Shown: positions 4,861-57,540, counted from the first letter of the stretch. The stretch is DNA of 64,000 nucleotides from Candidatus Yanofskybacteria bacterium (GCA_016185545.1 JACPNJ010000005.1:79013-143012), one strand, 5' to 3'. The notes: a model not told the origin generated them from the sequence alone. Numbers and translations are program-made.

Positions 4861-6816
4861 TTATTCAGTCTGTGGATAACGAGAATGGTTAAAGTACCAC
4901 AATAGAAAATCATTTGCAACTCTTATGGCCAACCCCTGGCTTTGGTTGATATTTTCAACTAACACCGTTATTACGATTTCCGGGTCGTCATATGGCCCGA
5001 ATACCGTAAACAATGAGTTTAGTCCGCGACCGGAAACTTGTGCCGTGCCGGTTTTAGCCGCCAAAGCAACCGGCACATCCTGAAGCAATGTTGCCGTACC
5101 CGATAAAACAGCCTGCCGCATTCCCTGCCGTACAACATTTAAAACATCTTGCTCAAAGGGCATTTGACCTAAAACTTGGCTATTAAAACCTGCAATTACG
5201 CTACCATCCTGGTTTTTGATTTCTCTTACAATGCGGGGTTTCATTAAATTACCGCCGTTAGCAATGGCCCCAATATATGTATTTATCCAAATGGGTGTTA
5301 CAACTAAATCGCCTTGCCCAATAGAAATGTTATAAGTATCGCCGACATACCACGGCTCACCTTTGGTTTCTCTCTTCCACTCTTTAGATGGCACTAAACC
5401 AACTGTTTCGCCTGGTAAATCAATACCGGTAATCTTATCGGCTCCTGCGCTCTTGAGATATGCCGCAATCCTATCAATTCCAAGGCCCTCTTTAATACTA
5501 CCATGACCACCGCCCAACGAATAAAAGTAAACATCCACTGAATCGGCGATTGCCTTCTTAATATCCGACCAGCCATGCACCTTCCAATCACGAAAAGTAT
5601 AATAGACATTCGGATCAACTTCACTTTGCACGTTTATGCTGCCCCCAGCATATAATATCGTTGAAGGCGTAACTACCCTCTCTTTTAATCCAGCTAAAGC
5701 CAGAAATGGTTTAATTGTAGAGCCAGGGCTATAGCGACCGGACACTGCCCTGTTTAAAAGCGGCTTATTAGAATCATTTAAAATTCGTGATATTCTAGAA
5801 ATATTGTCGGATAAATACGCACTCTCAAAAATATTATTATCAAAAGTCGGCATGCTTACCAGTCCAAGAACGATACCGGTTTTTGGGTTCTGGATCACGG
5901 CAGTGCCACGCCCTATCCCGCCTGACGTAAAAACAGAGCTTATAGATTTGTACAACTGATTTTGTATGGAAGAATCTATATTTAAAAACAGATTATTACC
6001 TGCTTCTGCGTTCTCTAGACCTTTTTTATCAAAAATTGTACTGTCATTATTTAAAAAATCAAAACTTCTATGTTCACCCCGCAAAAATCTCTCATACTGA
6101 GCTTCTAGGCCTAGCCTTCCGACACGATCATTAATCATGAAATAACCGTCGTTTTTAAGTTCATCCGGTGTTACTTTGGCGGTATATCCCAAAATATGGG
6201 CCGCAGCCGGTCCGTCAGGATAAAATCGTTTAACATTGGCCACAGTAAACAATCCGGGCAAAGACATAGTTTCTATTTTTACCATTTCGTCTTTGGTAAG
6301 ATTGTTTTTAACAAGAAAAACCGCTTGATCCTGATTGTCATTGAAAATTTTTGTCAGATATTGGCTATTTTGATTGATTATCGGCGAAAGTCGGCTAATC
6401 ATATCCGTCAATTTGTCATCGGATTCAGGTAAAAACGTATGAACCGCCATTAAATCAAAAACTGGTAAATTCTCAGCCAATAGCTTGCCTCGTGAATCGT
6501 ATATTAAGCCGCGTAGGGGCGATAACTGATAGCGCAAAGAATTACTTTGCTCGGCTAAAATGGTAAAACGTTTACCGTTTACAATTTGCAATTGAAACGA
6601 CTCGAAAATAAAAAAAACAAAAACTACAGCCGCTACAACATAAAAAACATTAAAAACACTGCGGCTGATGGGTGTTTCCATTGTGGGATGAATACTCAAA
6701 GCATCAGCCAGAGTTTCTTCCGGTTTTAATTCATCCTGCTCAAAACGGGTTATTTTGTATTTGTCTAAGTTCATTTTGCTCGTATTATAATGAAGTCCCC
6801 ACGGAATTACGCCCAT
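4861..6816 (-). CDS. mrdA: penicillin-binding protein 2 (class B transpeptidase)
   Basis: 651 aa; N-terminal TM segment; SXXK (GSTIKP) and KTG(T) motifs; sits directly downstream of mreBCD. Confidence 0.85.
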   Translation of the reverse strand: MGVIPWGLHYNTSKMNLDKYKITRFEQDELKPEETLADALSIHPTMETPISRSVFNVFYVVAAVVFVFFIFESFQLQIVNGKRFTILAEQSNSLRYQLSPLRGLIYDSRGKLLAENLPVFDLMAVHTFLPESDDKLTDMISRLSPIINQNSQYLTKIFNDNQDQAVFLVKNNLTKDEMVKIETMSLPGLFTVANVKRFYPDGPAAAHILGYTAKVTPDELKNDGYFMINDRVGRLGLEAQYERFLRGEHRSFDFLNNDSTIFDKKGLENAEAGNNLFLNIDSSIQNQLYKSISSVFTSGGIGRGTAVIQNPKTGIVLGLVSMPTFDNNIFESAYLSDNISRISRILNDSNKPLLNRAVSGRYSPGSTIKPFLALAGLKERVVTPSTILYAGGSINVQSEVDPNVYYTFRDWKVHGWSDIKKAIADSVDVYFYSLGGGHGSIKEGLGIDRIAAYLKSAGADKITGIDLPGETVGLVPSKEWKRETKGEPWYVGDTYNISIGQGDLVVTPIWINTYIGAIANGGNLMKPRIVREIKNQDGSVIAGFNSQVLGQMPFEQDVLNVVRQGMRQAVLSGTATLLQDVPVALAAKTGTAQVSGRGLNSLFTVFGPYDDPEIVITVLVENINQSQGLAIRVANDFLLWYFNHSRYPQTE

Positions 6817-7604: not shown

Positions 7605-8438
7605 TCATTTTAATATCACAAACAAACTGGAACCGAGGGAGGGGTCGAAGATGGGTTTAGCGGAAACGTTTTTGAAAAGGGTACTGGATGAGGATTCAAC
7701 CTTGATGATTTTGGCAACGAGCAGGGCCTCCGGCAAACCGTCAAGACCACTGGTAACAATTGTTTCGCCCTCTCTAATTTCATCGCTATTAGCCACAAGG
7801 TTAAGCACCAGATTATTTTGTAATTCGCCTTTTGTTTCAACCAGTGTTCGCGATTCCTGGACTTGTCCAGCATCAGTTTGGGACGGCTCAAACTGATGCT
7901 GGACAAGTCCGCTAATTTTAATACGTGGATCATCAATGAGCAAAATCAAAGCCGAATCATCAAAAACCTGCTCCGTGATGCCAACCAAAATATTGCCTGT
8001 CGCTATAACTGGCATCTTTTTTTCAATGCCGTTCTTTACGCCTTTGTTAATTAATGCCGTTGAGGACAAAGCGCTTCTTTGTATATTAAAAATCCGCGCC
8101 AATAATAACGGCGAATCCAGCCGTTTCGCTACCCCTAGTTCTTCTCTCAAAAAATTATTTTCGCGTTTTAAACTTTCAAGTTCCGCTAATTGCCCGCGTA
8201 AAATATTATTCTCCTTATAAAATCTGGCATTATCATCAATAATCATTTTGGTTTTTAAATATCCGGAAGAATACCTTGAAAAATTTAGCAGATTGTCCGT
8301 CAAAAAAATACCAGGTTTTTCTGTAATTTTATAGACAAAATTCTGCAGAAAATTATCCGTTAAATAATTATTAAAAAAAACAACCCCAGCGACAATTAAA
8401 ATGACGGCCAGATAGTTTTTATAAAAATTACGAGTCAC
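7605..8438 (-). CDS. mreC: rod shape-determining protein MreC
   Basis: 277 aa; N-terminal TM segment, coiled coil (LRGQLAELESLKRENNFLREEL), C-terminal beta domain; downstream of mreB. Confidence 0.75.
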   Translation of the reverse strand: MTRNFYKNYLAVILIVAGVVFFNNYLTDNFLQNFVYKITEKPGIFLTDNLLNFSRYSSGYLKTKMIIDDNARFYKENNILRGQLAELESLKRENNFLREELGVAKRLDSPLLLARIFNIQRSALSSTALINKGVKNGIEKKMPVIATGNILVGITEQVFDDSALILLIDDPRIKISGLVQHQFEPSQTDAGQVQESRTLVETKGELQNNLVLNLVANSDEIREGETIVTSGLDGLPEALLVAKIIKVESSSSTLFKNVSAKPIFDPSLGSSLFVILK

Positions 8439-12295: not shown

Positions 12296-12472
12296 CTTCA
12301 CGTTTGACCAAGTTCGAGGCGAGCGCGAGGAACGAACCGAGGCGTAGTAAAACTACGTCGAGGGAGTACTGGAGCGCTCAACGAAGAAATTGGGCAAACC
12401 CTTGTGGCTTGAGCCACGTTAAGCCCTAAAATTCTTGGGCTTCGTGGCTCAAGCGTGAAGGTTCTACAAAAA
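12296..12472. repeat. ~180-bp hairpin-rich element bounded by 14-bp inverted repeats (gtagaaccttcacg/cgtgaaggttctac)
   Basis: Internal 12-bp stem gcttgagccacg/cgtggctcaagc, inner aagccc/gggctt and cgtagt/actacg stems; the right arm overlaps the rseP stop codon. Confidence 0.6.
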
Positions 12473-28894: not shown

Positions 28895-30316
28895 CTATAA
28901 TTCGAATGATTCGCCCTCAACTGGCGCTACGGCTTCAATGCCATATTTTTCGTGAATTAGATTAGCGAGGGTGCGGGCGGATTCGTCTTCGCCTTGAACG
29001 ACAAAGACTTTTTTTAGATTGCCCGCACCGCCGCCTTGAACTGTTGAACCGCCAACCCACTTGATGAGACTTAGCTGATCGGCATGGGCGGAATAAGCTG
29101 ACAGGTTTTCTATATGGCACTTGACTGGCACCGTTTGGCCCATGATTCTGACTTCTTTTTCGCCCCTTTGAATGCGCCGGCCCAAACTGCCGTCAACTTG
29201 GTAACCGACAAAAAGTATCGTGCTGTTTGTATCCGGTAAATAACGCATTTCGTGATGCAAAATCCTGCCACCTTGGCTCATGCCTGAACCGGCAATTATA
29301 ATCTTAGGCGCCGGCACGTTATTTATCGCTTTTGATTCTTCGACGGCGGTTGTGAGTTTTAAACCCGGGAAATTAAATACGTCGTCACCGGAACCGATCA
29401 AATACGCCGTCTCTTTATTAAAATATTCGCGGTGTTTTTGGTATACAGCGGTCATTTTATTGGCGAGGGGGCTGTCAACAAACACCGGTACCCGTGGAAT
29501 TTTATTTTCATTGAAAAGCCCGTTTAATTCATGCAGAAGCTCTTGCGTGCGCTCAACGGCAAATGAGGGTATCATCAGCACCCCGCTTCGCTTGATTGTG
29601 TCCTCAATTACCGAAATCAGCTTACTTCTTCTCTCCTTTCTGCCCTCATGCACTCGATCACCATAAGCCGATTCAATAACAATATAGTCGGCATTTTTAA
29701 TTTTTTCGGTCGGTCGCAGAAGCGGCGTCGGCGGATTGCCGAGGTCGCCAGAGAAGAAAATCTTTCTGGTACCAGAAAGATTTTCTTCTCTGGCTTGGTA
29801 ATTGGTAATTGGTAATTGGTAATTGGTTCGCCATTGTATTTCTACAATTGCCGAACCCAGTATATGACCTGCGTCATGGAAAATTGCAGTAATCCCCTCC
29901 AGTTCAATCGGTTCATCATAAAAAACCCCCTCCACAAGCGACATCAGCCCGTCCAGATCCTCCTGTATAAATAATGGCTCATGTCCCATCTCTTTAGCTT
30001 CATCCAAAATCTTATTCAAATTATCAGGAAGTGCGACGGCCATCAGGTCGCGGGTGGCAGTGGTCGTGTAAACTTTGCCGCGGAAACCGTCTTTGTAAAG
30101 TTTCGGCAAACGCCCGATGTGGTCAATATGGCTGTGGGTAATAAAAACATATTTAATCTCTGCGGGATTATATTTGAATTGACCATAATTCAATTCTTCG
30201 GCATATCTTGTGCCTTGATTCAAGCCGCAATCTACGAGTATTTTGGTATGGCCGTGTTCGAGTAGATAATTAGCTCCGGTAACGGTACGAGCACCACCAT
30301 AAAAAGTTATTTTCAT
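28895..30316 (-). CDS. RNase J-like beta-CASP metallo-beta-lactamase ribonuclease
   Basis: HSHIDHIG motif; MBL plus beta-CASP plus RNA-specificity-like C-terminus; contains a heptamer array. Confidence 0.8.
   Translation of the reverse strand: MKITFYGGARTVTGANYLLEHGHTKILVDCGLNQGTRYAEELNYGQFKYNPAEIKYVFITHSHIDHIGRLPKLYKDGFRGKVYTTTATRDLMAVALPDNLNKILDEAKEMGHEPLFIQEDLDGLMSLVEGVFYDEPIELEGITAIFHDAGHILGSAIVEIQWRTNYQLPITNYQAREENLSGTRKIFFSGDLGNPPTPLLRPTEKIKNADYIVIESAYGDRVHEGRKERRSKLISVIEDTIKRSGVLMIPSFAVERTQELLHELNGLFNENKIPRVPVFVDSPLANKMTAVYQKHREYFNKETAYLIGSGDDVFNFPGLKLTTAVEESKAINNVPAPKIIIAGSGMSQGGRILHHEMRYLPDTNSTILFVGYQVDGSLGRRIQRGEKEVRIMGQTVPVKCHIENLSAYSAHADQLSLIKWVGGSTVQGGGAGNLKKVFVVQGEDESARTLANLIHEKYGIEAVAPVEGESFEL
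29797..29827. repeat. (GGTAATT)x4 heptamer array inside the RNase J-like gene
   Basis: ggtaattggtaattggtaattggtaattgg encoding ..NYQLPITNYQ.. Confidence 0.85.
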
Positions 30317-40833: not shown

Positions 40834-41862
40834 TTAAAAAATTTTCCTGGCTAACCGGTAAACCAAATACCAAAATTTTGAAATCGGCAGGTCAAATGAG
40901 CCGGGGTATTCAATGGTATTGCCGCCCCAGCCGAGTTTGAAACGGGTAACGCCGGGCCATTTGCGCGGGTCAATACCCCAAAAATCATATCGTTTTAGAC
41001 CTTCCGCTTTTAATTGCTTCATTATGTGCCAGTGCAAGGCATAAGGAGCCATAAGTGCTCTGTTTTCGTAATCAGAAGCACCGTGTAAATAGTAACCAGC
41101 ATCGCCGTAAGTAAGAATTAAGGCCGTGGCGATCGGTTTGTCATGAGTTTTGTCGAAGGGTTTGTTGTTATGCTTGGCAAAATATAATTTGGTTTGAAGT
41201 CCGTTATAATCCAACAATTTTCTGTAATAGTCATCCGGGTGCGGATTAAATCTATCCCGTTTGGCGGTTTTTTTAAGCAATTTTAAGAAAGTTTCAACTT
41301 TTGCACGATATTCTGCACGACATGCGATGTCGTGCTTCTGCACGACATCGCATGTCGTGCAAGTTACCTCTTCGCCCACGATTATGCCACGTTTATCGGC
41401 AACACCGATATTGTAGCGGGTCTTGTGATGCATAGCCGCGAGTAATTCGTTTTCGCTTTTTGTTAAATCAACAACAACCGTCTTCGACGGTTGGATTTCT
41501 TTTTTTGATTTTTTAAAACCTGCCTCAACCAGCGCTTGGGCAATGCTATCAATAAGCGGTTCGGTTTTTATAAAAATTGACTTGCGTTTTTTGCTTTCTT
41601 CGCGCAACCACCTTACGAAATTCGCCACTGGATTCTTAAATCCGCCTATCATCTGATTGAAGTCAATCTCCGGCCCATGCGGTATATAAAGATAGCTTTT
41701 CCCAAACGGTAAATTGTGTTTAATTATTTTGGCGCTTATTACAGGAGGTTGAGCCTCTTTACTTAGAGGCTCAACCTCTAAGTTTTCCGGGTATTCCAAA
41801 ACCTCCCGCCCCAGCGATTTCTGAAATTTCGTCCATTCTCTTGACTGAAGAAATGAGGTCAT
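40834..41862 (-). CDS. FemAB-family peptidoglycan bridge-forming aminoacyltransferase
   Basis: LQSREWTKFQ N-terminus; YALHWHIMKQLKAEGLKRYDFWGI...FKLGWGG C-terminus; carries two different palindromic insertions. Confidence 0.7.
   Translation of the reverse strand: MTSFLQSREWTKFQKSLGREVLEYPENLEVEPLSKEAQPPVISAKIIKHNLPFGKSYLYIPHGPEIDFNQMIGGFKNPVANFVRWLREESKKRKSIFIKTEPLIDSIAQALVEAGFKKSKKEIQPSKTVVVDLTKSENELLAAMHHKTRYNIGVADKRGIIVGEEVTCTTCDVVQKHDIACRAEYRAKVETFLKLLKKTAKRDRFNPHPDDYYRKLLDYNGLQTKLYFAKHNNKPFDKTHDKPIATALILTYGDAGYYLHGASDYENRALMAPYALHWHIMKQLKAEGLKRYDFWGIDPRKWPGVTRFKLGWGGNTIEYPGSFDLPISKFWYLVYRLARKIF
41311..41360. repeat. palindromic element family C: 25-bp unit ttctgcacgacatgcgatgtcgtgc followed by its inverted-core copy, in frame in the FemAB-like gene
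   Basis: gcacgacatgcgatgtcgtgc is self-complementary except the centre; encodes TCTTCDVVQKHDIACRAE. Confidence 0.8.
41745..41783. repeat. family A palindromic element (GAGGTTGAGCCTC-N8-GAGGCTCAACCTC) in frame in the FemAB-like gene
   Basis: Encodes ..NLEVEPLSKEAQPP.. Confidence 0.8.
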
Positions 41863-44611: not shown

Positions 44612-44753
44612 ATTCCTAAAAAATTACAAACTTTATTAGTAGAAAGATTGATCCACCGGCTACGCGCACGTGTTTTGCTGGCCCTTCGGGACAGGCGCAA
44701 AACGCGCGCGCCTCCGCCGGTAGAAACATCCTTTTCTTAGTAATTAACAAAGT

Positions 44754-44820
44754 GATAAAAATCACCCCCGACTCCGCCTGCAGGCGGAGTCGGGGGTTTC
44801 CGGTTTGTAATTTTTGATAA
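44754..44820 (+). repeat. small repetitive extragenic module: GATAAAAATCACCCCC - 14-bp GC hairpin - GGTTTGTAATTTTTGAT; the hairpin doubles as a terminator
   Basis: Hairpin cccccgactccgcc tgca ggcggagtcggggg at 44765..44796; same end motifs as 47928, 48240 and 55633. Confidence 0.6.
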
Positions 44821-45005
44821 ATCACCAAAAGTTATTTAAAACTTACATACCCAAAACGCACACTCTCTTGACACACGATAGGCATATATGCTAACCTATT
44901 CATGATGCTGGCTGATTATAAAAAGCCAAGCAGAACAACTACTGGAGAGCCACAAAAGCCCCGGCAGGTATGATCTTTTTCAATTGAATAAGGAGGAAGA
45001 AAAAA

Positions 45006-46563: not shown

Positions 46564-46610
46564 TCTTATCAATTATAAAATCCGCCTCAAGCGGATTTTA
46601 TAATTGATAA
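46564..46610. terminator. perfect 20-bp hairpin ttatcaattataaaatccgc-ctcaa-gcggattttataattgataa between tRNA-Lys and the convergent HD gene
   Basis: Direct reading; overlaps the HD gene stop codon. Confidence 0.6.
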
Positions 46611-47927: not shown

Positions 47928-47966
47928 ATCAAAAATTACAAACCCCGCTCCACCCCCTAATTTTTC
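47928..47966 (-). repeat. repetitive module copy (ATCAAAAATTACAAACC ... CCCCCTAATTTTT), left TIR of a ~357-bp MITE-like unit
   Basis: 17-bp perfect inverted match with 48268..48284. Confidence 0.6.
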
Positions 47967-47998
47967 TTCCTGTATCATGCCTTCATTACAAATTGCGG

Positions 47999-48203
47999 TC
48001 ACTGGCTAAATTGTCGGACACAGACCAGGACCGAATTTCTTAACGACTTGCCGTGCATAAATGCACAAGGCAAGTCTAAAATTCGGGATTGAAATGAAGC
48101 AGTTCATTTCAATCGTCCGTTTGCCGCTTGAAAACTTCGCCTATTGGCTCGTTTTCTGCGCGTTTTCCGACTAGTCCTAGTGTTACCCGACAATTCTTAA
48201 CGC
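47999..48203 (-). ncRNA. structured element copy L (about 205 bp; candidate ncRNA, RNA sense probably on the minus strand)
   Basis: Inverted homolog of 55912..56026 (about 90% over shared parts) with a 9-bp closing helix aattgtcgg/ccgacaatt, a compensatory hairpin difference (gcc-aata-ggc vs agct-tt-agct) and a ~95-bp nested insertion of two perfect hairpins. Confidence 0.5.
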
Positions 48204-48239
48204 CAGTTCCCTTATTTGTATAATCGGCAGATAATGTCA

Positions 48240-48284
48240 GAAAAATTAGGGGGTTGCGCTTGATACGGTTTGTAATTTTTGATA
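48240..48284 (+). repeat. repetitive module copy (GAAAAATTAGGGGG...GGTTTGTAATTTTTGATA), right TIR of the MITE-like unit
   Basis: Inverted partner of 47928..47944. Confidence 0.6.
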
Positions 48285-48294
48285 GGGTAAGCGG

Positions 48295-49890
48295 CTATTT
48301 TTCATCAGAGCCAAGGGATTCCTCCAATATCTTTCGCAATCCGCCGACGTCAATGTTAACTTTGGGTTTTGGCGGCTTGGACTCTATTTTGCGCCCCCTG
48401 AAATCAACCGGGCCTTGTTTGAGAGCTTCGGAAAAAGAAGTAGGTTTGACCGAAGGTTTTGGCGGAACAGCCAGTTTGAATGGCGCGGGTCTTGGTATGA
48501 TTGGCGCAGTGCTCGGCACGGGATTTCGCGGAAAAACCTGCGGTTTTCCCGCACCAAAACGAGGCTGACGCTCATCACTAAATCTTCCAATATCCGCCGT
48601 TACCGGTGCGTGCCATTCGGCAATTTTTTTCTCCACATCTTCACGACGGGCTGAGTAATGTTCTCTGGAGTATTCAATAATCCTTTGGCGATTGCTGACC
48701 GGCAAACGTTTTATCGTTTCCATCGTCATCGCCGAAAATGCCCGTGAAGCCACACCGTCAATCATCAATTTCAGATAAATTTGGCGTTTACCAAGATTTA
48801 CTATATCTGTAGCCATGAATTCCGGCGCCAGCTCTTTTTCTAAAAGTTCAGCATCTTCAGCGCCCACTCGAAAAGAAACAATAGTTCCGACATTGCCGAA
48901 AACTGCGTCTCTGACGCCCTCATCCATTTGAGCAACGTATTGATGGGCGATCATCAAACTCAAGTGATATTTCCGCGCCTCTGATAAGATATTGGCAAAA
49001 GAAGCCGTAGCAAAGTTTTGAAATTCATCAACAACCAATACAAAATCTTTGCGCTCGCGTTCTGGTATGTCAACGCGTGACATCGCGGCAAGCTGGATTT
49101 TTGTAATAATCAGCGCGCCAAGCAATCGTGAGGCGTCTTCGCCTATTCTGCCTTTTGAAATATTGACCAGCAAAATCTTACCTTCATCCATAATACGCCG
49201 CATATCAAGCGTACTTTTAGGCTGGCCGATTATATTTCTGATAAGCGTGGAGGATACAAACTGGCCAACTTTGTTTTGAATTGCCGCCGTTGCCTCTGAA
49301 GCAAACCTGTCGGCATATTTAGCGAATTCTTCGGTCCAAAATGCTTTAACCACCGGATCAGTCAACTGCCTAACGACGTTGGCACGATAATCTTTTTCGG
49401 CAAGCATTCGGTTAATTCCAAGAAGTGTAGAATCTGGGACTTCCAATAATGCTAAAATAGTATTATTAAGTATATACTCCATGCGCGGCGACCAAACATC
49501 AACCCATATTTTCTTGAAAACACCCATCACACCGTCAGCAACAAGATGGCGCTTATCCGGGTCAACCTGTTCCATAACATTGAAAGCAATCGGATATTCC
49601 AAATCAGCCGGATTGATATAGATTACATCTTTAATTCTGTCTTCTGGAATATAATCAAAAAGGTCTTCAACGGGATCGCCGTGCGGGTCAACAAAAGCAA
49701 GTCCCCTACTATCTTGTATGTCCTGAATGGCGATATTTTTAAGCAACTCGGATTTACCCATGCCAGTCTTGCCGATGACATACATATGACGCCGGCGGTC
49801 GTCCATCTTAACGCCAAAAGTCACCTTCTTGTTACGAAAGTTTGTTTCTCCGAATAGAACTACAGGGTTTTGATTCGCTTCGCTCATCAA
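48295..49890 (-). CDS. TraG/TraD/VirD4-like (FtsK-HerA superfamily) P-loop ATPase with disordered Pro-rich C-terminus
   Basis: Walker A GKTGMGKS, Walker B VLVVDEFQN; 531 aa. Confidence 0.55.
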   Translation of the reverse strand: MMSEANQNPVVLFGETNFRNKKVTFGVKMDDRRRHMYVIGKTGMGKSELLKNIAIQDIQDSRGLAFVDPHGDPVEDLFDYIPEDRIKDVIYINPADLEYPIAFNVMEQVDPDKRHLVADGVMGVFKKIWVDVWSPRMEYILNNTILALLEVPDSTLLGINRMLAEKDYRANVVRQLTDPVVKAFWTEEFAKYADRFASEATAAIQNKVGQFVSSTLIRNIIGQPKSTLDMRRIMDEGKILLVNISKGRIGEDASRLLGALIITKIQLAAMSRVDIPERERKDFVLVVDEFQNFATASFANILSEARKYHLSLMIAHQYVAQMDEGVRDAVFGNVGTIVSFRVGAEDAELLEKELAPEFMATDIVNLGKRQIYLKLMIDGVASRAFSAMTMETIKRLPVSNRQRIIEYSREHYSARREDVEKKIAEWHAPVTADIGRFSDERQPRFGAGKPQVFPRNPVPSTAPIIPRPAPFKLAVPPKPSVKPTSFSEALKQGPVDFRGRKIESKPPKPKVNIDVGGLRKILEESLGSDEK

Positions 49891-50020
49891 ATAAATTCAA
49901 AACTCAAATTACAAATTTTAATTGAAGCTCAAAATCTAAATTTTAAAACAGTTTTAGACTTTGAATTTTAGATTTCATTTAAAATTTGGATTTGAAAATT
50001 TGAATTTCTGCCGAATTTGT

Positions 50021-51298
50021 TTATCTGGTCGGTAAACCGGCTGGCGGTTGTCCTTTCTTTGCCTCCACGCGCGGAAACGCTGGCGCTTTTACACCGATAC
50101 CTGGCAAATGGAACAATGTTGCCAGTTCTTCAGTATTTAAAATTATAAACTGGCCAACAAAAGCTCTCTCTCGGTATTTTTGGTAAAGATGCCATTTGCG
50201 CCTGTACTCGCGCTCACGATAAAAAAACCCTTTATCCGATGGGAAAAGCCACGAAAACCATCCTTTATCTTTAGTAATCGTTTTTTTGTTAGGCTTGAAA
50301 CTGTTAAGATTATTGAGATAAAACTGCTTGAGCATACCCATTACCGCAGATATATGCGAGCCATGAAAACGATCTTTGCGGGCAATGTAAAAAAATCTAT
50401 AACCGGATTTGAAACCAAGTTTTGAAATTTTATTTTCAACTTGGTCAAGAGTAAATTTTTGACCAGGCGTAAGCTTTTGCAACGAAAATTCATCTTTTTT
50501 CTTTTCTTCATGCACCGGCGTTCCGCCGGGTAAAAGTAGATCAATAAAATCCACTACCTTGCCCAAAGAGCCACGCTCAACTTTGGGCTCTTTGCCAATA
50601 ATTTTATCTACTTCAGTCTTGGCTTCTTTTACCCAAGCATCACCCGTAGCTCTAATCGTAAGCTGCAGCCATATATGCTCACCCGATTCCAGCGCGCTCA
50701 TGATTTCGGCCAACGGCGCTAGAGGATCAGTCCGTTTGAATTCATCCTTGCCTGATTCTTCTTCAAAAAAGGGATAGGTTTTAATCGGATAGGCATCAGG
50801 TCTTGTAAAAACCAATTCTGTACCAAAAAGATCATATTCATCATTAGGAAGATACTCTGGCAACTGTGTGATATAGTCATCAGCTATTTTAATTTCAGCA
50901 TCCGGATATTGGGCAAAAATCTGCGCTTCAATCAAATTGCGCAGATCTTCTGGGGTTCTTATATAAAAATTGGTTTCGCCGCCATTGCCGACTATTTCAA
51001 ACGAAAGCCAGGGTTGAACCTTGCCTTTGAAAAATTCATCTTTCCAGCTTACGGAACCAGTGTAAAGCGCATGAAGGCCAGCAAAAATGTTTTCAGCTAT
51101 CTTCGGGCTTTTTTGGACATCGGGTGGAGGTTTAATTTCAAGTAAGACCCACTTTATGGAAAGAAGGTATTGTTTTCTTACATAAAAAAGCCAGCCGTCA
51201 AGCGCGCCGAAAAATAACAAAAACGGGGTGAATGTCCACCAGTAGTGTGCTAACAAGTAAAAAGATGTTTTTAGTGGACTAAGAACGTCGAGAAACAA
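50021..51298 (-). CDS. hypothetical membrane protein (2 N-terminal TM helices plus large cytoplasmic domain)
   Basis: 425 aa; 130 nt downstream of the ATPase gene on the same strand; TTG start. Confidence 0.45.
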   Translation of the reverse strand: MFLDVLSPLKTSFYLLAHYWWTFTPFLLFFGALDGWLFYVRKQYLLSIKWVLLEIKPPPDVQKSPKIAENIFAGLHALYTGSVSWKDEFFKGKVQPWLSFEIVGNGGETNFYIRTPEDLRNLIEAQIFAQYPDAEIKIADDYITQLPEYLPNDEYDLFGTELVFTRPDAYPIKTYPFFEEESGKDEFKRTDPLAPLAEIMSALESGEHIWLQLTIRATGDAWVKEAKTEVDKIIGKEPKVERGSLGKVVDFIDLLLPGGTPVHEEKKKDEFSLQKLTPGQKFTLDQVENKISKLGFKSGYRFFYIARKDRFHGSHISAVMGMLKQFYLNNLNSFKPNKKTITKDKGWFSWLFPSDKGFFYREREYRRKWHLYQKYRERAFVGQFIILNTEELATLFHLPGIGVKAPAFPRVEAKKGQPPAGLPTR

Positions 51299-51303
51299 AA
51301 ATC

Positions 51304-51402
51304 AGGTGTCAGGTGTCAGGTGTCAGGTGTCAGGTGTCAAAGTTTAGAAGTTATTTTATCTTATACTCTGTAACCTGTAACCTGTAACCTGTAACCTGTA
51401 AC
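51304..51402. repeat. (CAGGTGT)x5 and (CTGTAAC)x5 heptamer arrays filling the 100-bp intergenic region
   Basis: caggtgtcaggtgtcaggtgtcaggtgtcaggtgt ... ctgtaacctgtaacctgtaacctgtaacctgtaac; the first abuts the start at 51298, the second abuts the stop at 51402. Confidence 0.9.
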
Positions 51403-52517
51403 TAGGCCTCCTTGAGGGCATAAATCCCGTTGCCTTTTTTATCAAAAGTTTTAGAATCCTGCAGATTTAAAAGTATGGTGTTTTCTTTGACCATGCGGTG
51501 AGATAATACTTGCGACACTATTTCTTTTTTGTGCATCGGCTGACCGGCTGAATGCAGAAGATCAGTAATTACATCCTTGACGGTACCGGCTTTATAACCC
51601 CAATCGGCCAAACCATATAAACCACGACCAACCAGAACAAATCTTTTATCTTTAATCAATTCATTATGGACTGTCTGGACATTAGCTCTGCGGTTATCAA
51701 AACCGGATACATTGATGAGTCGGGTAATCTCGCGAAAATGCTTGGGCTTGCCATCGCGCTTCAATACTAAGAAGGCCTTGTCTCTGACACCTCTGGGTTT
51801 AATATCCGACCAATTGGCCAAACCAATTTGGCCGAAATTATTCTTGGCTATATTTTGTGAAATTGAAAGATAAGAAGCGACTATTGCCGGGGTTACGTCT
51901 TTAAGCGAGGCACCTGATTTTTTATAAAAATCCACGACGGCCGATTCTGCAATAGGGGCATTTTCCTTCTCTAAAACATTCATAAAAATAGAAAGTGATT
52001 TTTTAAAATATTCGGCGTGCTGGTCAGATAAAGCCCAGTATGCATGGAGGTCGTCAGTTTCTGCAAACTTCTTAAGTCGTTCATCAAGAAACAGAAAAAA
52101 AACTAAAGCGGCATTAGCCGGGTTCTCTTTAGCAACTCCGGAAAATTTAGCAAAGAGATTATCTTCCCTGCTAACTCCACCGGCCTGTTCAAGAATATTT
52201 TCGGCAAGACTGACAAACGGCTTAACCTTGGCGGCTATTCCGTCATTCAAGTTTCCCCTGATTTGTTTCAGTGAAACTTCCTCAATCTGTCTGACTCTTT
52301 CACGGGTTATGCCATAGCTTTTACCTATGGATTCAAGAGTTTCTTTCTTACCTGTTTTCAAGCCAAAACGACGTGAAATCACATCTTTATTCCTGGTACT
52401 TAAAACCGCAAGTACCTGTCCGACCACCCCCCTGATTGTAGCAGTTAAATTGGGCATACAAGCTTGTCCAAGAGCAAGGAGCGAAGCAACAAAGCGATTG
52501 GGTAACAAGGTTAGCAC
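51402..52517 (-). CDS. sigma-70 region-4 HTH domain protein with ~270-aa C-terminal domain of unknown function
   Basis: ISRRFGLKTGKKETLESIGKSYGITRERVRQIEEVSLKQIR is a canonical sigma-70 r4.2; no regions 2/3. Confidence 0.5.
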   Translation of the reverse strand: MLTLLPNRFVASLLALGQACMPNLTATIRGVVGQVLAVLSTRNKDVISRRFGLKTGKKETLESIGKSYGITRERVRQIEEVSLKQIRGNLNDGIAAKVKPFVSLAENILEQAGGVSREDNLFAKFSGVAKENPANAALVFFLFLDERLKKFAETDDLHAYWALSDQHAEYFKKSLSIFMNVLEKENAPIAESAVVDFYKKSGASLKDVTPAIVASYLSISQNIAKNNFGQIGLANWSDIKPRGVRDKAFLVLKRDGKPKHFREITRLINVSGFDNRRANVQTVHNELIKDKRFVLVGRGLYGLADWGYKAGTVKDVITDLLHSAGQPMHKKEIVSQVLSHRMVKENTILLNLQDSKTFDKKGNGIYALKEA

Positions 52518-52775
52518 CCCGCCCTCTATGCACTTTAATAGCTTAGAAGGTGGGGTAAATAACTACTACCATGCTCGCTACACTACGCTTGCTGCGCGTG
52601 GGCATTTATTTAAAGATACCATATAGTTTCTAACGGGTCAATCACTTAACATATCAACATATAACTATGGAGTATGACGTGTCAACCCCGTACGAGGCAG
52701 AGGCACGCTGCGTGCCCTCGCGGCCTCGTTCGGGGTCAACCCCGAAATGAACTTTCTGGAAAATCTACTATGGGG

Positions 52776-53663
52776 TCAGCCACTTCTTTTTCCACTTAAC
52801 CATACAAGGATCGGAGAAGCGACAAAGATTGACGAATAGGCTCCGGAAAAAATACCGATAATCAAAGCCAGAGCGAAATATTTGATTGATTCTCCGCCAA
52901 AAAAGAATATGGCAATAAGCGCGAGCAAGGTGGTAAACGTCGTATTCAGTGAACGTACCAATGTTTGCATTATGCTCTTGTGGACCAGCTCTCCAAAACC
53001 CTGACTGGAACCCAGTCGCAAAACATTTTCCCTGATCCTATCAAACACCACCACGGAATCAGATAGTGAATAACCGAGTATGGTCAGCGCCGCCGCCACA
53101 AAAATTGCGGTAATTTCAATACCAAAATAATAGCCCAGCAGCGCGAAAACACCGACGGGTATGACAATATCATGAATCAAGGCAATAATAGCGGCTAAAC
53201 CCATAGCCCATGGCGATAATGCGCGCGATATTTTCCTAAAAACAAATGCGACATACGCAATGATTGCGGCAAGCATTATTATTATCGCGGTGACGCTTTT
53301 GCTTCTTAACTCCTTGCCTATGGTGGGACCGATGGAATCAAAACGGCTTTCATTTATCTCGCCGAATTTATCGGAAATTTTGTCTAAAATATTTTGATGG
53401 GTTTGTTCGTCAATACTGTTCAAACGAATCAGTATTCCCCGCTCTCCGACCGGACTGATATTTATGTCTTTGGCGCCTGAAATCGCACCAATGACACCGC
53501 TAAGTTCGGCAGTTGGCGGACGGTTTTCCTTAAAAACAATTTCCATTACCGCTCCGCCCCTGAAATCAACGCCAAACCGCAAGCCGAAAACAGCTGTTAC
53601 AATAATCGCAGTGACGGTCAGCGCCATAGAAATGAAAAACATGATTTTATATACAGGTTTCAT
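52776..53663 (-). CDS. secF: protein translocase subunit SecF
   Basis: 295 aa, 6 TM helices, SecDF P1-head-like periplasmic part. Confidence 0.88.
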   Translation of the reverse strand: MKPVYKIMFFISMALTVTAIIVTAVFGLRFGVDFRGGAVMEIVFKENRPPTAELSGVIGAISGAKDINISPVGERGILIRLNSIDEQTHQNILDKISDKFGEINESRFDSIGPTIGKELRSKSVTAIIIMLAAIIAYVAFVFRKISRALSPWAMGLAAIIALIHDIVIPVGVFALLGYYFGIEITAIFVAAALTILGYSLSDSVVVFDRIRENVLRLGSSQGFGELVHKSIMQTLVRSLNTTFTTLLALIAIFFFGGESIKYFALALIIGIFSGAYSSIFVASPILVWLSGKRSG

Positions 53664-53705
53664 AAAATATCAATTGGATTTTGGATTTTGACATTGGAAT
53701 TTATT

Positions 53706-55055
53706 TCAGAATAGCCATCTCCTCTTTTCTAGCTTTTGCCCTATAAATAATCTCAAAAATGATTTAGTCACGACTATTGAGCTGAATAAACTCATTAATA
53801 CTCCAATGCCCAGTGTTAAAGCAAAACCTTTGACTACCGAGATTGAAAAAATATACAAAATAATGGCACCCAGTATAGTCGTCACGTGACTGTCGCGTAT
53901 TGAATACCAGGCCCGATGGAAACCTTCGTTAAATGACTGCGGCAATGATTTACCTGCCTTAAATTCCTCGCGAAAACGGGCAAAAATTAAAACATTGGCA
54001 TCAACGGCCATGCCCAGAGATAGTATGAATCCGGCAATACCAGCCAGGGTCAGCGTGACTGGTACCAGTTTATAAATAGCCAGAACGATAATGGTATAAA
54101 TCAAAAGCGCCAGAACTGAAACCACGCCGGGAAGACGATAAAAAAGTATCATGAAAATTGCTACCAGCAATAAGCCATAAAGACCGGCCCGGAGAGATCT
54201 TTGGAGTGATTCCTGCCCCAATGATGGACCGATTGTCTGCTGTGAAATGAGCGTTATTGGAACCGGCAAAGCGCCAGCATTAAGATTATTGGCAAGATCC
54301 CTCGCTTCTTTTATCGTAAATCCACCGCTGATAACGGCGCGACCGCCCTGTATTTCGCTTTGGACTGTTGGCGCGCTTATGACCAAACCGTCAATATATA
54401 TGGCGACTCGTTTACCGAGATTGCGTCTGGTGATTTCAGCGAATAACTTAGCACCATCATCGTTCAGTTCCAGTGATATTTGCGGCTGTGATGTGGTTTG
54501 ATCAAAGGCAAGCTGGGAACGTTTGAGATGCTTGCCGGTCAGACCGGTTGATTGAAAATACGGGTCTTCGCCAAGCTGTTGGCCTTTTTGCTGGGCATCA
54601 AGGATTTTTTGTGATTCTTCCTGTGTTCGTTCTTCCTTGAATTCTAGAAACGGCGTTTGGCCTATCATTTGGATTGCTTGGTTAACATCGCTGATACCGG
54701 CCAGCTCCACAACCAATCTGTCTCTGCCCTCTATCTGAACTAACGGTTCGGCTACACCAAAAAGATTGACTCTGCGCTCTATTACATCGCGCACACCGGC
54801 CATGGCATCACCAGCATCCTGTCCGCTACTGTCGGAAAGATCGGCTTGATAAACCAAATGGGTACCACCAAGAAGGTCTAAACCGAGACGAAATGACGGA
54901 ACTTTAAACATATGCGGAACTTTGAACTTTGAACTTTGAACTTTGAGTTTAGCGTTAACGATGTCCGCCCCCTTGTCCCATCCTTGCGGATACACAAAAA
55001 CCGCCAAAAACAGTGCGGCGGCCAAAATTATCAGCGGTGTAAATTTACGAAGCAT
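53706..55055 (-). CDS. secD: protein translocase subunit SecD
   Basis: 449 aa; SecD architecture (LLGGTHLVY... and C-terminal TMs). Confidence 0.88.
   Translation of the reverse strand: MLRKFTPLIILAAALFLAVFVYPQGWDKGADIVNAKLKVQSSKFKVPHMFKVPSFRLGLDLLGGTHLVYQADLSDSSGQDAGDAMAGVRDVIERRVNLFGVAEPLVQIEGRDRLVVELAGISDVNQAIQMIGQTPFLEFKEERTQEESQKILDAQQKGQQLGEDPYFQSTGLTGKHLKRSQLAFDQTTSQPQISLELNDDGAKLFAEITRRNLGKRVAIYIDGLVISAPTVQSEIQGGRAVISGGFTIKEARDLANNLNAGALPVPITLISQQTIGPSLGQESLQRSLRAGLYGLLLVAIFMILFYRLPGVVSVLALLIYTIIVLAIYKLVPVTLTLAGIAGFILSLGMAVDANVLIFARFREEFKAGKSLPQSFNEGFHRAWYSIRDSHVTTILGAIILYIFSISVVKGFALTLGIGVLMSLFSSIVVTKSFLRLFIGQKLEKRRWLF
54917..54950. repeat. (GAACTTT)x4 heptamer array in the SecD N-terminal region
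   Basis: Encodes KFKVPHMFKVPSF. Confidence 0.85.
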
Positions 55056-55154
55056 TGTTTGATAATAAAATATTTATACCTCAAAATCAAGACCGTGAGA
55101 CCTCGTCAAAAACAAAAGCCAAGTTTCCTTGGCTAATCAGCGGCTACAAACCCT

Positions 55155-55526
55155 TTAGTTTAATGCATCATTTGACTGGTCTTGAACTAAACTGGAAATC
55201 CTATTTGGATATTTGTGAATAGTGGCTCCAGGAAATTTTTTATTAATATATGCTACTGCCATTTCAGGGGTCTCGAAATACAATTCATGTTCTTGTGAGG
55301 CGTAATCTCCATCACCAGTGTTATATGAAATTATACCAGAACTAACCTTGGTCCAAAAACCAATCGGATACCAACCCATAAATCTTTGTATGTAAAATTC
55401 TTTTCTAATTGGCTCGCCCCACCCTTTCGTTTTTCCGTAGCTTTCCCATGCTTTTAACGTTGCCTCGTCATATTTATTTATCCGTTCTTTTCTTATACGA
55501 AATAACATTGGCTCCTCCTTATTCAA
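55155..55526 (-). CDS. hypothetical protein
   Basis: 123 aa, Trp/Tyr-rich; no recognisable domain. Confidence 0.4.
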   Translation of the reverse strand: MNKEEPMLFRIRKERINKYDEATLKAWESYGKTKGWGEPIRKEFYIQRFMGWYPIGFWTKVSSGIISYNTGDGDYASQEHELYFETPEMAVAYINKKFPGATIHKYPNRISSLVQDQSNDALN

Positions 55527-55632
55527 TTGAAAAAGATCATACCTGCTGGAAATAAGGCAATTTTAGGCCACTTCCAACATCGATATCATCTTAACATGTA
55601 TAGTGCTAGATTGTCAACATTTCGTTGGCTCA

Positions 55633-55687
55633 ATCAAAAATTACAAACCGGGAACCCACGATGTAATCATCGGGGGTGATTTTTATC
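55633..55687 (-). repeat. repetitive module copy (ATCAAAAATTACAAACC - hairpin cccacgatg/catcggggg - GGGGGTGATTTTTATC)
   Basis: Inverted homolog of 44754..44820; the hairpin sequence differs but the pairing is preserved. Confidence 0.6.
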
Positions 55688-55911
55688 GTTAGCAAATTGC
55701 TAAAACCAAAAACATTAGAGCGCACCCCGTCAAAAATTATTCAGAGCAAACCATATTGCCTTTTGGGACTTCTGGGATTGTCCCAATTTAGACTAGAGCG
55801 ACATCCTTTGATTTTAAAACATTTGTACCGAGTGACTGATTTATATAACGACTAGAGCGAGCCCCTTAGTTTTTCGTCATTCATCTGTCAACTAACAAAT
55901 TAGCAAAGCGA

Positions 55912-56026
55912 GCGTTAAAAATTGTCGGGTAACGCCAAGACTAGTCGGAAAACGCGCAGAAAACGAAGCTTTAGCTGAAGTTTTCAAGCGGCAAACGGAG
56001 AACTGGTCTGTGTCCGATAATTTAGC
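55912..56026 (+). ncRNA. structured element copy R (about 115 bp; candidate ncRNA)
   Basis: See copy L; closing helix aaattgtcggg/tccgataattt tolerates G-T on the + strand only. Confidence 0.5.
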
Positions 56027-56085
56027 GAGCTTTGCGTATATTTGTAGGCAGACATGATGTTGTAAGAAAAATTAAGGGGCCCGCG

Positions 56086-57540
56086 TCACTCTTCTGGTAA
56101 TTTTTCACGCGACACTCTCGGCTTCTGTTTTTCCAACCACTCCTTGAGGAATAGCGTTGCTTTTACATCGTCTTCGTTGTATTTGATGATTTTGTCCATG
56201 ATTTTTTGGTCTTTGGTTTTGAGCCAGTCATTGTACCAAACCACTGACTCGGCACCGCCGGCGTCTTCGGCCTGCCATTTGAAACCAAGGTACTTGGCTA
56301 CATCTTTCAAGCTGTAAAAATAAATCGGTAAAACCGCCGCCTCTATAAACGACCAATGCAAATCAATAGTATTATTCTTAAACTTATCTTCTAGCGCCAG
56401 TGAAATACCGTATTTATTACCCAAACGCTTGAAAACTTCGCGCTCATAGTATGAATAGTGGTAAATCACAAAATCCTCCAATGATTCCAAAAAATCAAGA
56501 AATTCACGCCAAGCCCTTTCCTCGTCTTTTTTATCCTGTGCCAAAAAGTATTTGTATGTTGGCTCTTTCTTGCCACTTTCTATAAGCATGCCCAAAAGAT
56601 AATCAATGCCTTCGGTGGGGTCCGATTCTATATCAAAGTAAATCTCATTTTCCACTTGCGGAAATTCGCTTTTTTTGAGAATTCTAGGTTCGTTTGAAAT
56701 CAAAACCTGGGCCTGATTATAAAAACGCAGGATTTTATCAAACGGCCAGTCTTCAAGACGGGAACGCAAAAAATCCAAATCAGCCGAAGCCAAGTCATTT
56801 ACAGTATGAATACCGAGCTCATAAAGTCGCCGCTGATCGTTCTGGCTCAATTTATAAATTAACGAAACGTCATCGCAACCCTTCGTTTCTTCAACGCATA
56901 AAGAATACCAAGGCGATTGCTTACAACCGCTTTTTAGAAACGGGGGGGGTTTTTCGCCGGCAAGCACCCGCTCTATCCTTTCTCGTGTCAGATGAAAATA
57001 ATCTAAAAAATCATCAACCATGAATGACCGCTCCTCGCCATCGGAATTGATGATGTGGGCATCGCGGGGCAAAACACCCTGCAATCTTTCTAAAATTAAA
57101 CTGTAAAAAACAAGCTGGAACTTGTACTCATCGCGTATTTCTTTGCCGCTTTTAATGTCATAGACAACATAATAATGATCGCCAAGATTTGATTTCATCC
57201 CCTTTTCTACGGGACGGGCTTCAAGCAAATCAGGTATCCCGACCCAATTTTCATCCATCAATACACCATGATAAATATTTTTGCCCTGTTTCATCAGTTC
57301 AAGAGTCGCCAAAAATGCCTCATCAAGATCGTGGAAAAATTCCGGTTTTATTTCTTCAAAATTCCGGCCCTTGATCATTTCCAGCTCATGCTTCAATCCG
57401 CCGCGGTGAATCATTTCAATCAGCGGCGGGATTTCACCCTTCTTCGCCTGCTCGCCGTAAATGTCATACCAAATCCAGTGGGGACATTGGAAAAATTTAT
57501 AAAAATGCTCCCCGGTCAATTTTGGCTTTTTATCAGTCAT
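56086..57540 (-). CDS. TM0106-family RecB-like nuclease (Cas4-like PD-(D/E)XK plus RNase H-like domain)
   Basis: FFQCPHWIW, IPDLL...VYDIKSG, C-x-C-x-C cluster (SGCKQSPWYSLCVEETKGC), then YFDIESDP exonuclease-like motif. Confidence 0.6.
   Translation of the reverse strand: MTDKKPKLTGEHFYKFFQCPHWIWYDIYGEQAKKGEIPPLIEMIHRGGLKHELEMIKGRNFEEIKPEFFHDLDEAFLATLELMKQGKNIYHGVLMDENWVGIPDLLEARPVEKGMKSNLGDHYYVVYDIKSGKEIRDEYKFQLVFYSLILERLQGVLPRDAHIINSDGEERSFMVDDFLDYFHLTRERIERVLAGEKPPPFLKSGCKQSPWYSLCVEETKGCDDVSLIYKLSQNDQRRLYELGIHTVNDLASADLDFLRSRLEDWPFDKILRFYNQAQVLISNEPRILKKSEFPQVENEIYFDIESDPTEGIDYLLGMLIESGKKEPTYKYFLAQDKKDEERAWREFLDFLESLEDFVIYHYSYYEREVFKRLGNKYGISLALEDKFKNNTIDLHWSFIEAAVLPIYFYSLKDVAKYLGFKWQAEDAGGAESVVWYNDWLKTKDQKIMDKIIKYNEDDVKATLFLKEWLEKQKPRVSREKLPEE

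Follow-up and report, generated by a model that had tools for sequence, protein, structure and literature searches.

Miniature inverted-repeat transposable elements (MITEs, such as Correia/NEMIS of Neisseria) and also the RPE of Rickettsia are small, non-coding sequences bounded by terminal inverted repeats that lie near gene ends in reduced or compact genomes; relatives differ in whether they carry them, and co-transcription of these elements and folding into RNA hairpins can occur. The attC sites of integrons, ~60-140 nt long, fold as hairpins in a strand-specific manner, vary in their terminal structure and mark exchangeable cassettes. ERIC/IRU sequences are reportedly imperfect palindromes of >100 bp that are intergenic, occur in either orientation and are highly conserved across related genera; some copies are said to carry extra blocks at fixed internal sites, and one strand is said to fold better than the other. 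In REPINs, which are REP doublets that form hairpins and are mobilized by RAYT transposases, an invariant 16-mer stands at either end of a variable spacer; compensatory changes are common in them, and they are thought to move as single strands (PMC3116915). Almost no non-coding RNAs or mobile repeats have been described in the tiny, repeat-poor genomes of the Candidate Phyla Radiation (CPR, Patescibacteria). The subject of this work is M1, an element present in two copies, L and R, in a stretch of 64,000 nt from Candidatus Yanofskybacteria bacterium (GCA_016185545.1, JACPNJ010000005.1:79013-143012), which is called the window throughout. M1 is real and is explained by no catalogued family; it is a previously undescribed, low-copy family of non-coding, hairpin-shaped cassettes, found so far only in Yanofskybacteria-like CPR genomes, and it is not a regulator of any particular gene.

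Copy R, on the plus strand, and copy L, on the minus strand, are homologous, lie 7.7 kb apart in inverted orientation and point outwards. Two conserved blocks, the 28-mer GACTAGTCGGAAAACGCGCAGAAAACGA and the 23-mer GAAGTTTTCAAGCGGCAAACGGA, are each present in exactly two places in the window, as against 0 expected from 100 shuffles. The two inverted homologous copies of the original prediction are confirmed at their places. The bounds predicted for R (55912-56026) hold, while the conserved block of L is 48005-48203 and not 47999-48203. The predicted length of ~115 nt covers only the core of the element, since pairwise alignment and a repeat finder extend the homology by another ~50-60 nt on each side. 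In each copy the two flanking arms are complementary to each other, with the termini CCCC(C)TWAKTTTTTC ... GAAAAATTARGGGG, and each M1 copy is a rod of 220-355 nt made of four parts: outer arms conserved in their pairing only, a nearly invariant core, a free tip hairpin, and fixed points at which optional hairpin modules are accommodated. The module of L had been described as a 95-bp insertion of two perfect hairpins; it measures 87 nt (48029-48115) and replaces 3 nt, its first hairpin is indeed perfect over 12 bp, and its second has a 2-nt bulge and is enclosed by a third helix, CCGAAUUUU/AAAUUCGG. The tip hairpin had been read as agct-tt-agct in R; it is AGC-UUUA-GCU, as against GCC-AAUA-GGC in L, and the compensatory change that had been claimed for it stands, with two of the three pairs differing on both sides. 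Copy L is enclosed by an outer perfect inverted repeat of 15-17 nt, ATCAAAAATTACAAACC / GGTTTGTAATTTTTGAT. The covariance model of the M1 core, run over the window with filters off, recovered L and R and no further copy, its other matches being unrelated short palindromes.

Every copy folds alone into the same rod in minimum-free-energy predictions. The core alignment comprised 12 sequences, from which the inserts of L and L054 (locus numbers prefixed with L denote the sequences compared) were excised, and its structure was fixed beforehand from the fold of R. In this alignment 93.8% of the cells pair; displacing the 3' partners by 1-3 columns lowers this to 30-38%. Both sides change in 19 of the 51 pairs, and neither the observed number of double changes nor the covariation score nor the percentage paired was reached by any of 500 shuffles. 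A separate alignment of the arms gave changes on both sides in 16 of 38 pairs, so that the predicted covariation, with pairing kept, is real in the core as well as in the arms. The double changes of the core fall in three places, namely the closing helix (CUGGC/GCCAG, CUAAGC/GCUUAG and GCAAAGC/GCUUUGC, with a flipped GCUUUG/CAAAGC in L093), helix P3 (AGGUUGGU/ACCAACCU in copy L001b vs AGACUAGU/ACUGGUCU in the others) and the tip hairpin, which occurs in seven variants of sequence and length (3-9 bp). Helices P1b, P4 and P5 are invariant, and because they never vary they are uninformative on covariation. L054 has the 87-nt module of L as well, inserted at the same place, and three pairs of the first hairpin are fully compensatory between the two; L037 and L085 carry a different hairpin, of 36 nt, in the 5' arm.

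The strand that had been chosen as the RNA sense strand, R(+)/L(-), is the more stable one in 14 of 14 copies, by 8-27 kcal/mol. The change from G-C to G·U in AAUUGUCGG/CCGAYAAUU, on which that choice had been based, was correctly read, and G·U pairs are frequent in general: there are 2-6 in each copy as compared with two A·C 1x1 mismatches in total, or ~12 G·U vs 3 A·C positions when counted by alignment column. Without a strand preference both kinds of mismatch should be about equally frequent. With RNA parameters the core of R folds at -44 kcal/mol (z = -3.5) and its complement at -27 (z = -0.2), whereas with DNA parameters the same strand of R gives -18.5 (z = -0.6), no better than shuffled sequences.

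The arms fall into three covarying types, and between these types the core without its tip is 96-100% identical and the arms are 45-65% identical. The core, of ~100 nt, is asymmetric and has A-rich internal loops, including the pseudo-symmetric CG[GAAAA]CG / CG[GCAAA]CG, and conserved G·A mismatches. Its unpaired nucleotides are invariant (GUUAAG, GUA, GAAAA/GCAAA, GCA/AA and GAGA), and purine-purine mismatches are retained, for example as a tandem G·A in the type-2 closing helix and as AGCG/AGCG boxes in the outer stem. M1 shows the general marks of a structured RNA, namely covariation above the controls, strand-specific G·U pairs and conserved loops, although correction of palindromes at the DNA level can mimic the first of them.

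Searches outside the window were used to define the extent of the family. An exact scan with the 23-mer of 185,579 species genomes returned three CPR metagenome-assembled genomes, and a scan of metagenomes with an 18-mer of the core returned 95 stretches, about a dozen of which were true copies by blastn. With the window and a syntenic relative included, M1 amounts to 16 loci with 14 distinct copies, all from Candidatus Yanofskybacteria-like organisms of groundwater. One of the loci, L001, is labelled Saccharibacteria, but its LysRS shares 77.5% identity, and its SerRS 84.7%, with the corresponding enzyme of the window. At least two copies each are present in the window, in L001 and in assembly JACOZZ. 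Nine of the 16 loci end inside M1, and two of these (L002 and L104) are contigs of JACOZZ with different tip hairpins; such ends are expected where a repeat breaks an assembly, and in practice M1 does break assemblies.

The claim that no known RNA family matches is borne out, since Rfam 15 at gathering thresholds reports only tRNA-Lys in the whole window and, with E up to 10 around both copies, only chance matches of ≤18 bits. No M1 match was found by blastn in the phage and plasmid collections or, at word size 11, in 5,426 complete E. coli genomes, and a scan of viral contigs with the core 18-mer gave 0 matches. The core has an open antisense reading frame, and a search with it of a set of 5.8 billion proteins for more copies yielded no candidate. 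The patterns of the hammerhead, k-turn, domain IV of the signal recognition particle (SRP) RNA and CsrA site were checked by eye in the core and none fits, and we found no relevant report in the literature on CPR repeats and structured RNAs. A protein-coding role was considered as well, as the sense frame is open in most copies, and was rejected because stops interrupt it in L and L033 and because the length variants are not multiples of 3.

No gene recurs beside M1. Its neighbors include SerRS, alanine racemase, a PMT mannosyltransferase-family membrane protein, EF-G, an MmeI-type enzyme and hypothetical proteins. To follow the two sites of the window in other genomes, syntenic relatives were recovered via SecD homologs. 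The L site lies between a TrwB/HerA-like gene and the HD gene; it holds M1 in the window (SecD identity 100%), co-directional with the genes and with type-1 arms, and in L104 (88%) it holds M1 in inverted orientation, with another arm type and a different tip hairpin. The same site is occupied by a different structured module, M2, in L102 (80%) and by a plain terminator in L107 (77%) and L111 (74%), and there is no element in L110 (79%). At the R site, L102, L107, L109, L110 and L111 are empty. Among the relatives, the covariance model gave its sole match at the inverted copy of L104 and none in L102, L103 or L105-L111. Elsewhere, L064 carries M1 after a gene whose L001 ortholog precedes an ordinary terminator, and L078 is chimeric, its 5' arm being of type 1 and its 3' arm of type 3. 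Because orthologous sites in close relatives differ by presence, absence, inversion and replacement, these comparisons show that M1 turns over within short evolutionary times, by insertion, loss, inversion or swapping. Opposite copy L001a no clean empty site could be delimited, since the SerRS-Alr spacer of the window is unalignable past the stop codon.

M2 is a second small-RNA-like module, found at 44612-44825 (+) in the window, at 16873-17040 in L102 and at 5239-5400 (-) in L108, that is, at three different genomic places in three relatives; the place in L102 is the L site and that in L108 is upstream of secD. An intrinsic terminator follows its GC-rich rod (CCGGCUACGCGCACGUGUUUUGC...GCAAAACGCGCGCGCC), it folds very stably (z = -8.7), its copies show compensatory changes between each other, and Rfam gives no match to it. 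M2 starts with (C)AAAAATTACAAA and ends with TTTGTAATTTTTGAT, which are the termini of full-length M1, and a 15-nt terminal inverted repeat is thus common to the two modules. Among the M1 loci, the terminal repeat also occurs in L002, L036, L078, L093 and L104. In all the sequence examined, the exact 13-mer AAAAATTACAAAC is confined to M1 or M2 copies and to one further place, 55636, ~230 nt upstream of R. When the window is compared with L102, the flank past the right-hand motif is orthologous and the cargo between the motifs is different. The shared termini could represent a shared RNA terminal helix, because the U-rich 3' motif forms part of the terminator tail of M2, or, with equal likelihood, ends that both modules use in recombination or transposition. 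Two metagenome contigs, L110 (1976-2100) and L085 (615-717), have in common a third structured module, M3, which is intergenic, GC-rich and 94% identical between them; L085 also carries M1.

Table 1. Positions of the parts of the two M1 copies and of their outer motifs in the window
Feature	Position	Strand	Remarks
Copy R, core	55912..56026	+	115 nt, conserved, structured, GCGTTAAA...TTTAGC; covariance model R1 match 55904-56036, 149 bits
Copy R, 5' arm, type 2	55862..55911	+	Begins CCCCTTAGTTTTTC; pairs with 3' arm
Copy R, 3' arm, type 2	56027..56079	+	Terminates in GAAAAATTAAGGGG
Copy R, variable tip hairpin	55967..55976	+	AGC-UUUA-GCU, helix 7, 3 bp, 4-nt loop
Copy R, degenerate outer motif GGTAATTTTTC	56096..56106	+	Counterpart of GGTTTGTAATTTTTG; directly past stop codon of gene 56086-57540
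Outer motif ATCAAAAATTACAAACC upstream of R	55633..55649	+	212-nt stretch between motif and R arm, including small terminator-like hairpin 55655-55680
Copy L, core including inserted module	48005..48203	-	Covariance model match 48083-48211, split by insert
Copy L, optional module	48029..48115	-	87 nt; 12-bp perfect hairpin and compound hairpin, in GAGA bulge 3' of helix P3
Copy L, variable tip hairpin	48139..48148	-	GCC-AAUA-GGC
Copy L, 5' arm, type 1	48204..48253	-	Begins CCCCCTAATTTTTC on sense strand
Copy L, 3' arm, type 1	47953..48004	-	Terminates in GAAAAATTAGGGGG on sense strand
Copy L, outer 5' motif ATCAAAAATTACAAACC	48267..48283	-	12 nt past stop of gene 48295-49890
Copy L, outer 3' motif GGTTTGTAATTTTTGAT	47928..47944	-	Perfect complement of 5' motif; flank beyond orthologous to L102

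Several other features of the window lie close to these sites or resemble their parts. In the stretch upstream of R (55633-55861), the small terminator-like hairpin has homology with L110 1880-1960 and, when reversed, with the 3' end of M2, and three degenerate tandem repeats of the 5' start of M1 (TAGAGCG...) follow at ~55716, 55791 and 55850. Downstream of SerRS (628-1893, -), at 563-640, there is an inverted repeat, AAAAATTAGG...CTAATTTTTG, around ~50 nt. This is the same place at which L001 has a full M1 copy overlapping the SerRS stop codon, and the repeat may be an M1 relic or a preferred target. The genes of the TrwB/HerA-like ATPase and DUF8128 (48295-51298) are a conserved pair beside those of a protein with sigma70_r4 and HARE-HTH and of SecDF in L102-L105, L107 and L109-L111, and this block is core synteny and not a mobile element. 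A 57-nt AT-rich near-palindrome lies between two genes at 49893-50007, and short tandem repeats (TCAGGTG and TAACCTG units) are found at 51302-51391, between genes 50021-51298 and 51402-52517.

Perfect palindromes also occur within genes of this genome. The mreC gene (7605-8438, -) has a 42-nt in-frame insertion at 7860-7909, encoding the 14 amino acids LVQHQFEPSQTDAG, that is absent from all 263-amino-acid MreC homologs and from the orthologous DNA of L112. The insertion and the native sequence together form a perfect 22-bp hairpin with a 4-nt loop, and the left end of the insertion is the reverse complement of the native right flank. Further long hairpins lie at 29747-29794, in a beta-CASP/MBL open reading frame (28895-30316), at 41314-41361, in a FemAB open reading frame (40834-41862), and at 12408-12455, 46566-46609 and 44764-44797. 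These five have stems of 14-22 bp and mostly loops of 4-5 nt, are mutually unrelated and are perfect save for one bulge in 12408-12455; the two within the named open reading frames are 48 nt each and hence in frame.

In weighing what M1 is, the explanations tied to particular genes can be dealt with by synteny. The original prediction took L for a possible cis-leader of the HD/dGTPase-like gene, and L does lie 44-115 nt upstream of that gene on the same strand. That M1 is a cis-regulatory leader or riboswitch of this gene is nevertheless hardly credible: the 16 copies, R and 14 others besides L, have unrelated neighbors and stand in both orientations, the HD orthologs of L102, L107 and L111 have no M1 upstream, and in L104 the element is inverted there. 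The proposal fails because M1 is inverted, replaced or absent at the orthologous HerA-like/HD site. The inverted, outward-pointing arrangement of L and R, together with the two divergent copies that lie 4.7 kb apart in L001, might suggest a composite transposon or an invertible segment of 7.7 kb, with SecDF and its neighbors inside and with L and R as its ends. We consider this extremely improbable and rule it out because the same gene order (Cas4-like, SecD, SecF, sigma-r4/HARE-HTH, DUF8128, TrwB-like, HD) exists without the copies in L102, L107 and L111, and most of it, also without M1, in L109 and L110; moreover, the genes between the copies of L001 are different housekeeping genes, and the arm types of L and R differ. 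It is also improbable that M1 is a structural gene-end module, that is, an oversized bidirectional terminator or 3'-end stabilizer (A-tract, GC-clamped hairpin, U-tract) that is inherited and reshuffled and whose core has no function itself. Most copies begin 0-30 nt from a stop codon, the layout of the full-length element, ATCAAAAATTACAAACC...CCCCC[rod]GGGGG...GGTTTGTAATTTTTGAT, is that of the small terminators at 44752-44818 and 55633-55690, the type-3 tip hairpin with UUUUGUUUUCU on the antisense strand is a textbook intrinsic terminator, and relatives have plain terminators at the same sites. A terminator, however, has no need of 100 nucleotides that never vary or of asymmetric loops that are conserved, 9-13 nt separate the U-tract from the GC clamp, a terminator scan makes no call at either copy, and some copies lie in divergent promoter regions, e.g. 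in L003.

The choice is then mainly between a cassette whose core works as RNA and a DNA repeat. We tentatively prefer the former, that M1 is a mobile or exchangeable hairpin cassette whose conserved structured core probably acts as RNA, because the invariant asymmetric loops, the G·U bias and the significance of the fold with RNA parameters only all point in that direction. Its main rival, which we regard as rather unlikely, is a selfish DNA hairpin of the REPIN, MITE or ERIC kind: non-autonomous, with a single-stranded form or terminal repeats recognized by a transposase encoded elsewhere, a core conserved as the binding or cleavage site of that enzyme, pairing kept by arm-to-arm template switching or gene conversion, and any RNA incidental. 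Such an element would be present or absent in random orientation at gene ends, would break contigs and would need no conserved promoter, all of which agrees with M1, and the perfect terminal repeat shared with the unrelated M2 recalls MITE families that share one transposase. The outermost M1 stems extend into locus-specific sequence as inverted duplications (e.g. GCCGTATC/GATATGGC at the SerRS stop of L001), and the palindromic mreC insertion with its inverted flank duplication, in the same genome, fits the same kind of process. On the other side, the center of M1 is invariant and its ends are variable, which is the reverse of REPINs and MITEs; there is no direct target-site duplication at any copy, the related flanks being inverted; no transposase, RAYT, integrase or reverse transcriptase is encoded in the annotated window or beside any copy; the copy number looks low (2 in 64 kb); L and R, opposite and 7.7 kb apart, are ill-suited to a lagging-strand-specific mechanism acting on single strands; and the evidence just given for an RNA bears against it as well. 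The single transposase encountered, of the rve family (IS481/IS3-like) and directly upstream of secD in L105 (29-1045), at the R-equivalent site, was rejected as a parent transposon because its inverted ends (TGTCTAGGTTCAGATAC...) are unrelated to M1.

Several observations weigh against an RNA-acting core. DNA-level hairpin repeats such as REPINs typically show compensatory changes as well (PMC3116915), for which reason covariation alone is no proof of RNA function, and the step from covariation to a functional RNA in the original prediction is weakened although the covariation itself is sound. The perfect hairpins of the tip and the insert count for little as signs of selection on RNA, because this genome makes perfect palindromes at the DNA level, even inside mreC. 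The near-identity of the copies across genomes may reflect recent spread and not purifying selection. Ascertainment is biased as well, as the metagenome scan demanded the exact core 18-mer and thereby forced 18 core positions to be identical, and the core of L001b, the only copy found independently of the 18-mer, is 86-89% identical to the others. No conserved sigma-70-like promoter precedes the copies by promoter scan and flank inspection, and the sole good promoter-like site, at 48197-48224 (+), faces outward on the antisense strand and is confined to type-1 arms. Finally, ~5 copies are oriented with the upstream gene and ~7 of 12 against it, and because of the latter read-through would often yield the 'wrong' strand.

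The cassette lands at gene ends in either orientation, being either mobile or exchanged by recombination. We propose that its core functions as a folded RNA, whose transcription would be driven by read-through or by a weak promoter of its own. This RNA might be protected by the long closing stem, or a double-strand RNase might cut that stem, so that the product would be a stable RNA of ~115-200 nt; a U-rich outer motif follows the rod. The invariant loops would bind a trans-acting factor, possibly the one that copies the cassette. The analysis shows the fold, the covariation, the strand bias, the difference in conservation between core and arms and the turnover at orthologous sites, whereas we infer that M1 is transcribed and processed, that a factor partners it and by what means it moves. 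A bolder version, which we consider a long shot, is that M1 is a new class of RNA-centered mobile cassette whose invariant core, either an RNA with catalytic or guide-like activity or the RNA handle used by a recombinase or nuclease, would direct copying or exchange into gene-end 'slots' bounded by CAAAAATTACAAACC / GGTTTGTAATTTTTG; M2, which is unrelated to M1, has the same boundaries and fills that same slot in a sister genome.

Compared with known systems, M1 resembles the stable small RNAs with a long terminal stem (6S, SRP and Y RNA) and sibling small RNAs in its rod fold, conserved internal loops, variable hairpins, covarying stems and paralogous copies, and differs from them in that it has no Rfam match (E = 10), no conserved location and no evident promoter and behaves as a mobile insertion. 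Riboswitches and leaders keep a constant position and orientation upstream of homologous genes, which M1 copies do not. The attC sites conserve the base of the stem (R/L boxes) and not the middle, unlike M1, and the window has no integrase/IntI and no co-oriented cassette array, its M1 copies being inverted around housekeeping genes. With MITEs, M1 has in common the terminal inverted repeats, the presence or absence at orthologous sites and the occurrence of several copies per genome; it differs in having no direct target-site duplication, no parent insertion sequence with matching ends in the window or beside any copy, and ends that are its least conserved part. Like ERIC, M1 is an intergenic imperfect palindrome in either orientation with optional internal blocks and a strand bias of folding, but there is no sequence similarity between the two (E. 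coli blastn), the host of M1 is a CPR bacterium, and M1 has an asymmetric invariant core, three covarying arm types, termini shared with M2 and a seemingly low copy number. M1 and REPINs are both extragenic non-coding hairpins with compensatory changes across both sides; REPINs occur in tens to hundreds of copies together with a RAYT gene, as compared with two copies of M1 and no Y1_Tnp/RAYT in the 64-kb window, and the invariant ends of REPINs have no equivalent in M1, in which conservation is highest in the core and lowest in the arms. If M1 is selfish DNA, it would thus be a hairpin element with a conservation pattern opposite to that of REPINs and MITEs and would point to an unusual way of inserting DNA in this lineage, one that generates palindromes; if its core is an RNA with a protein partner, it would offer a handle on an RNA-protein system in organisms that are not culturable alone.

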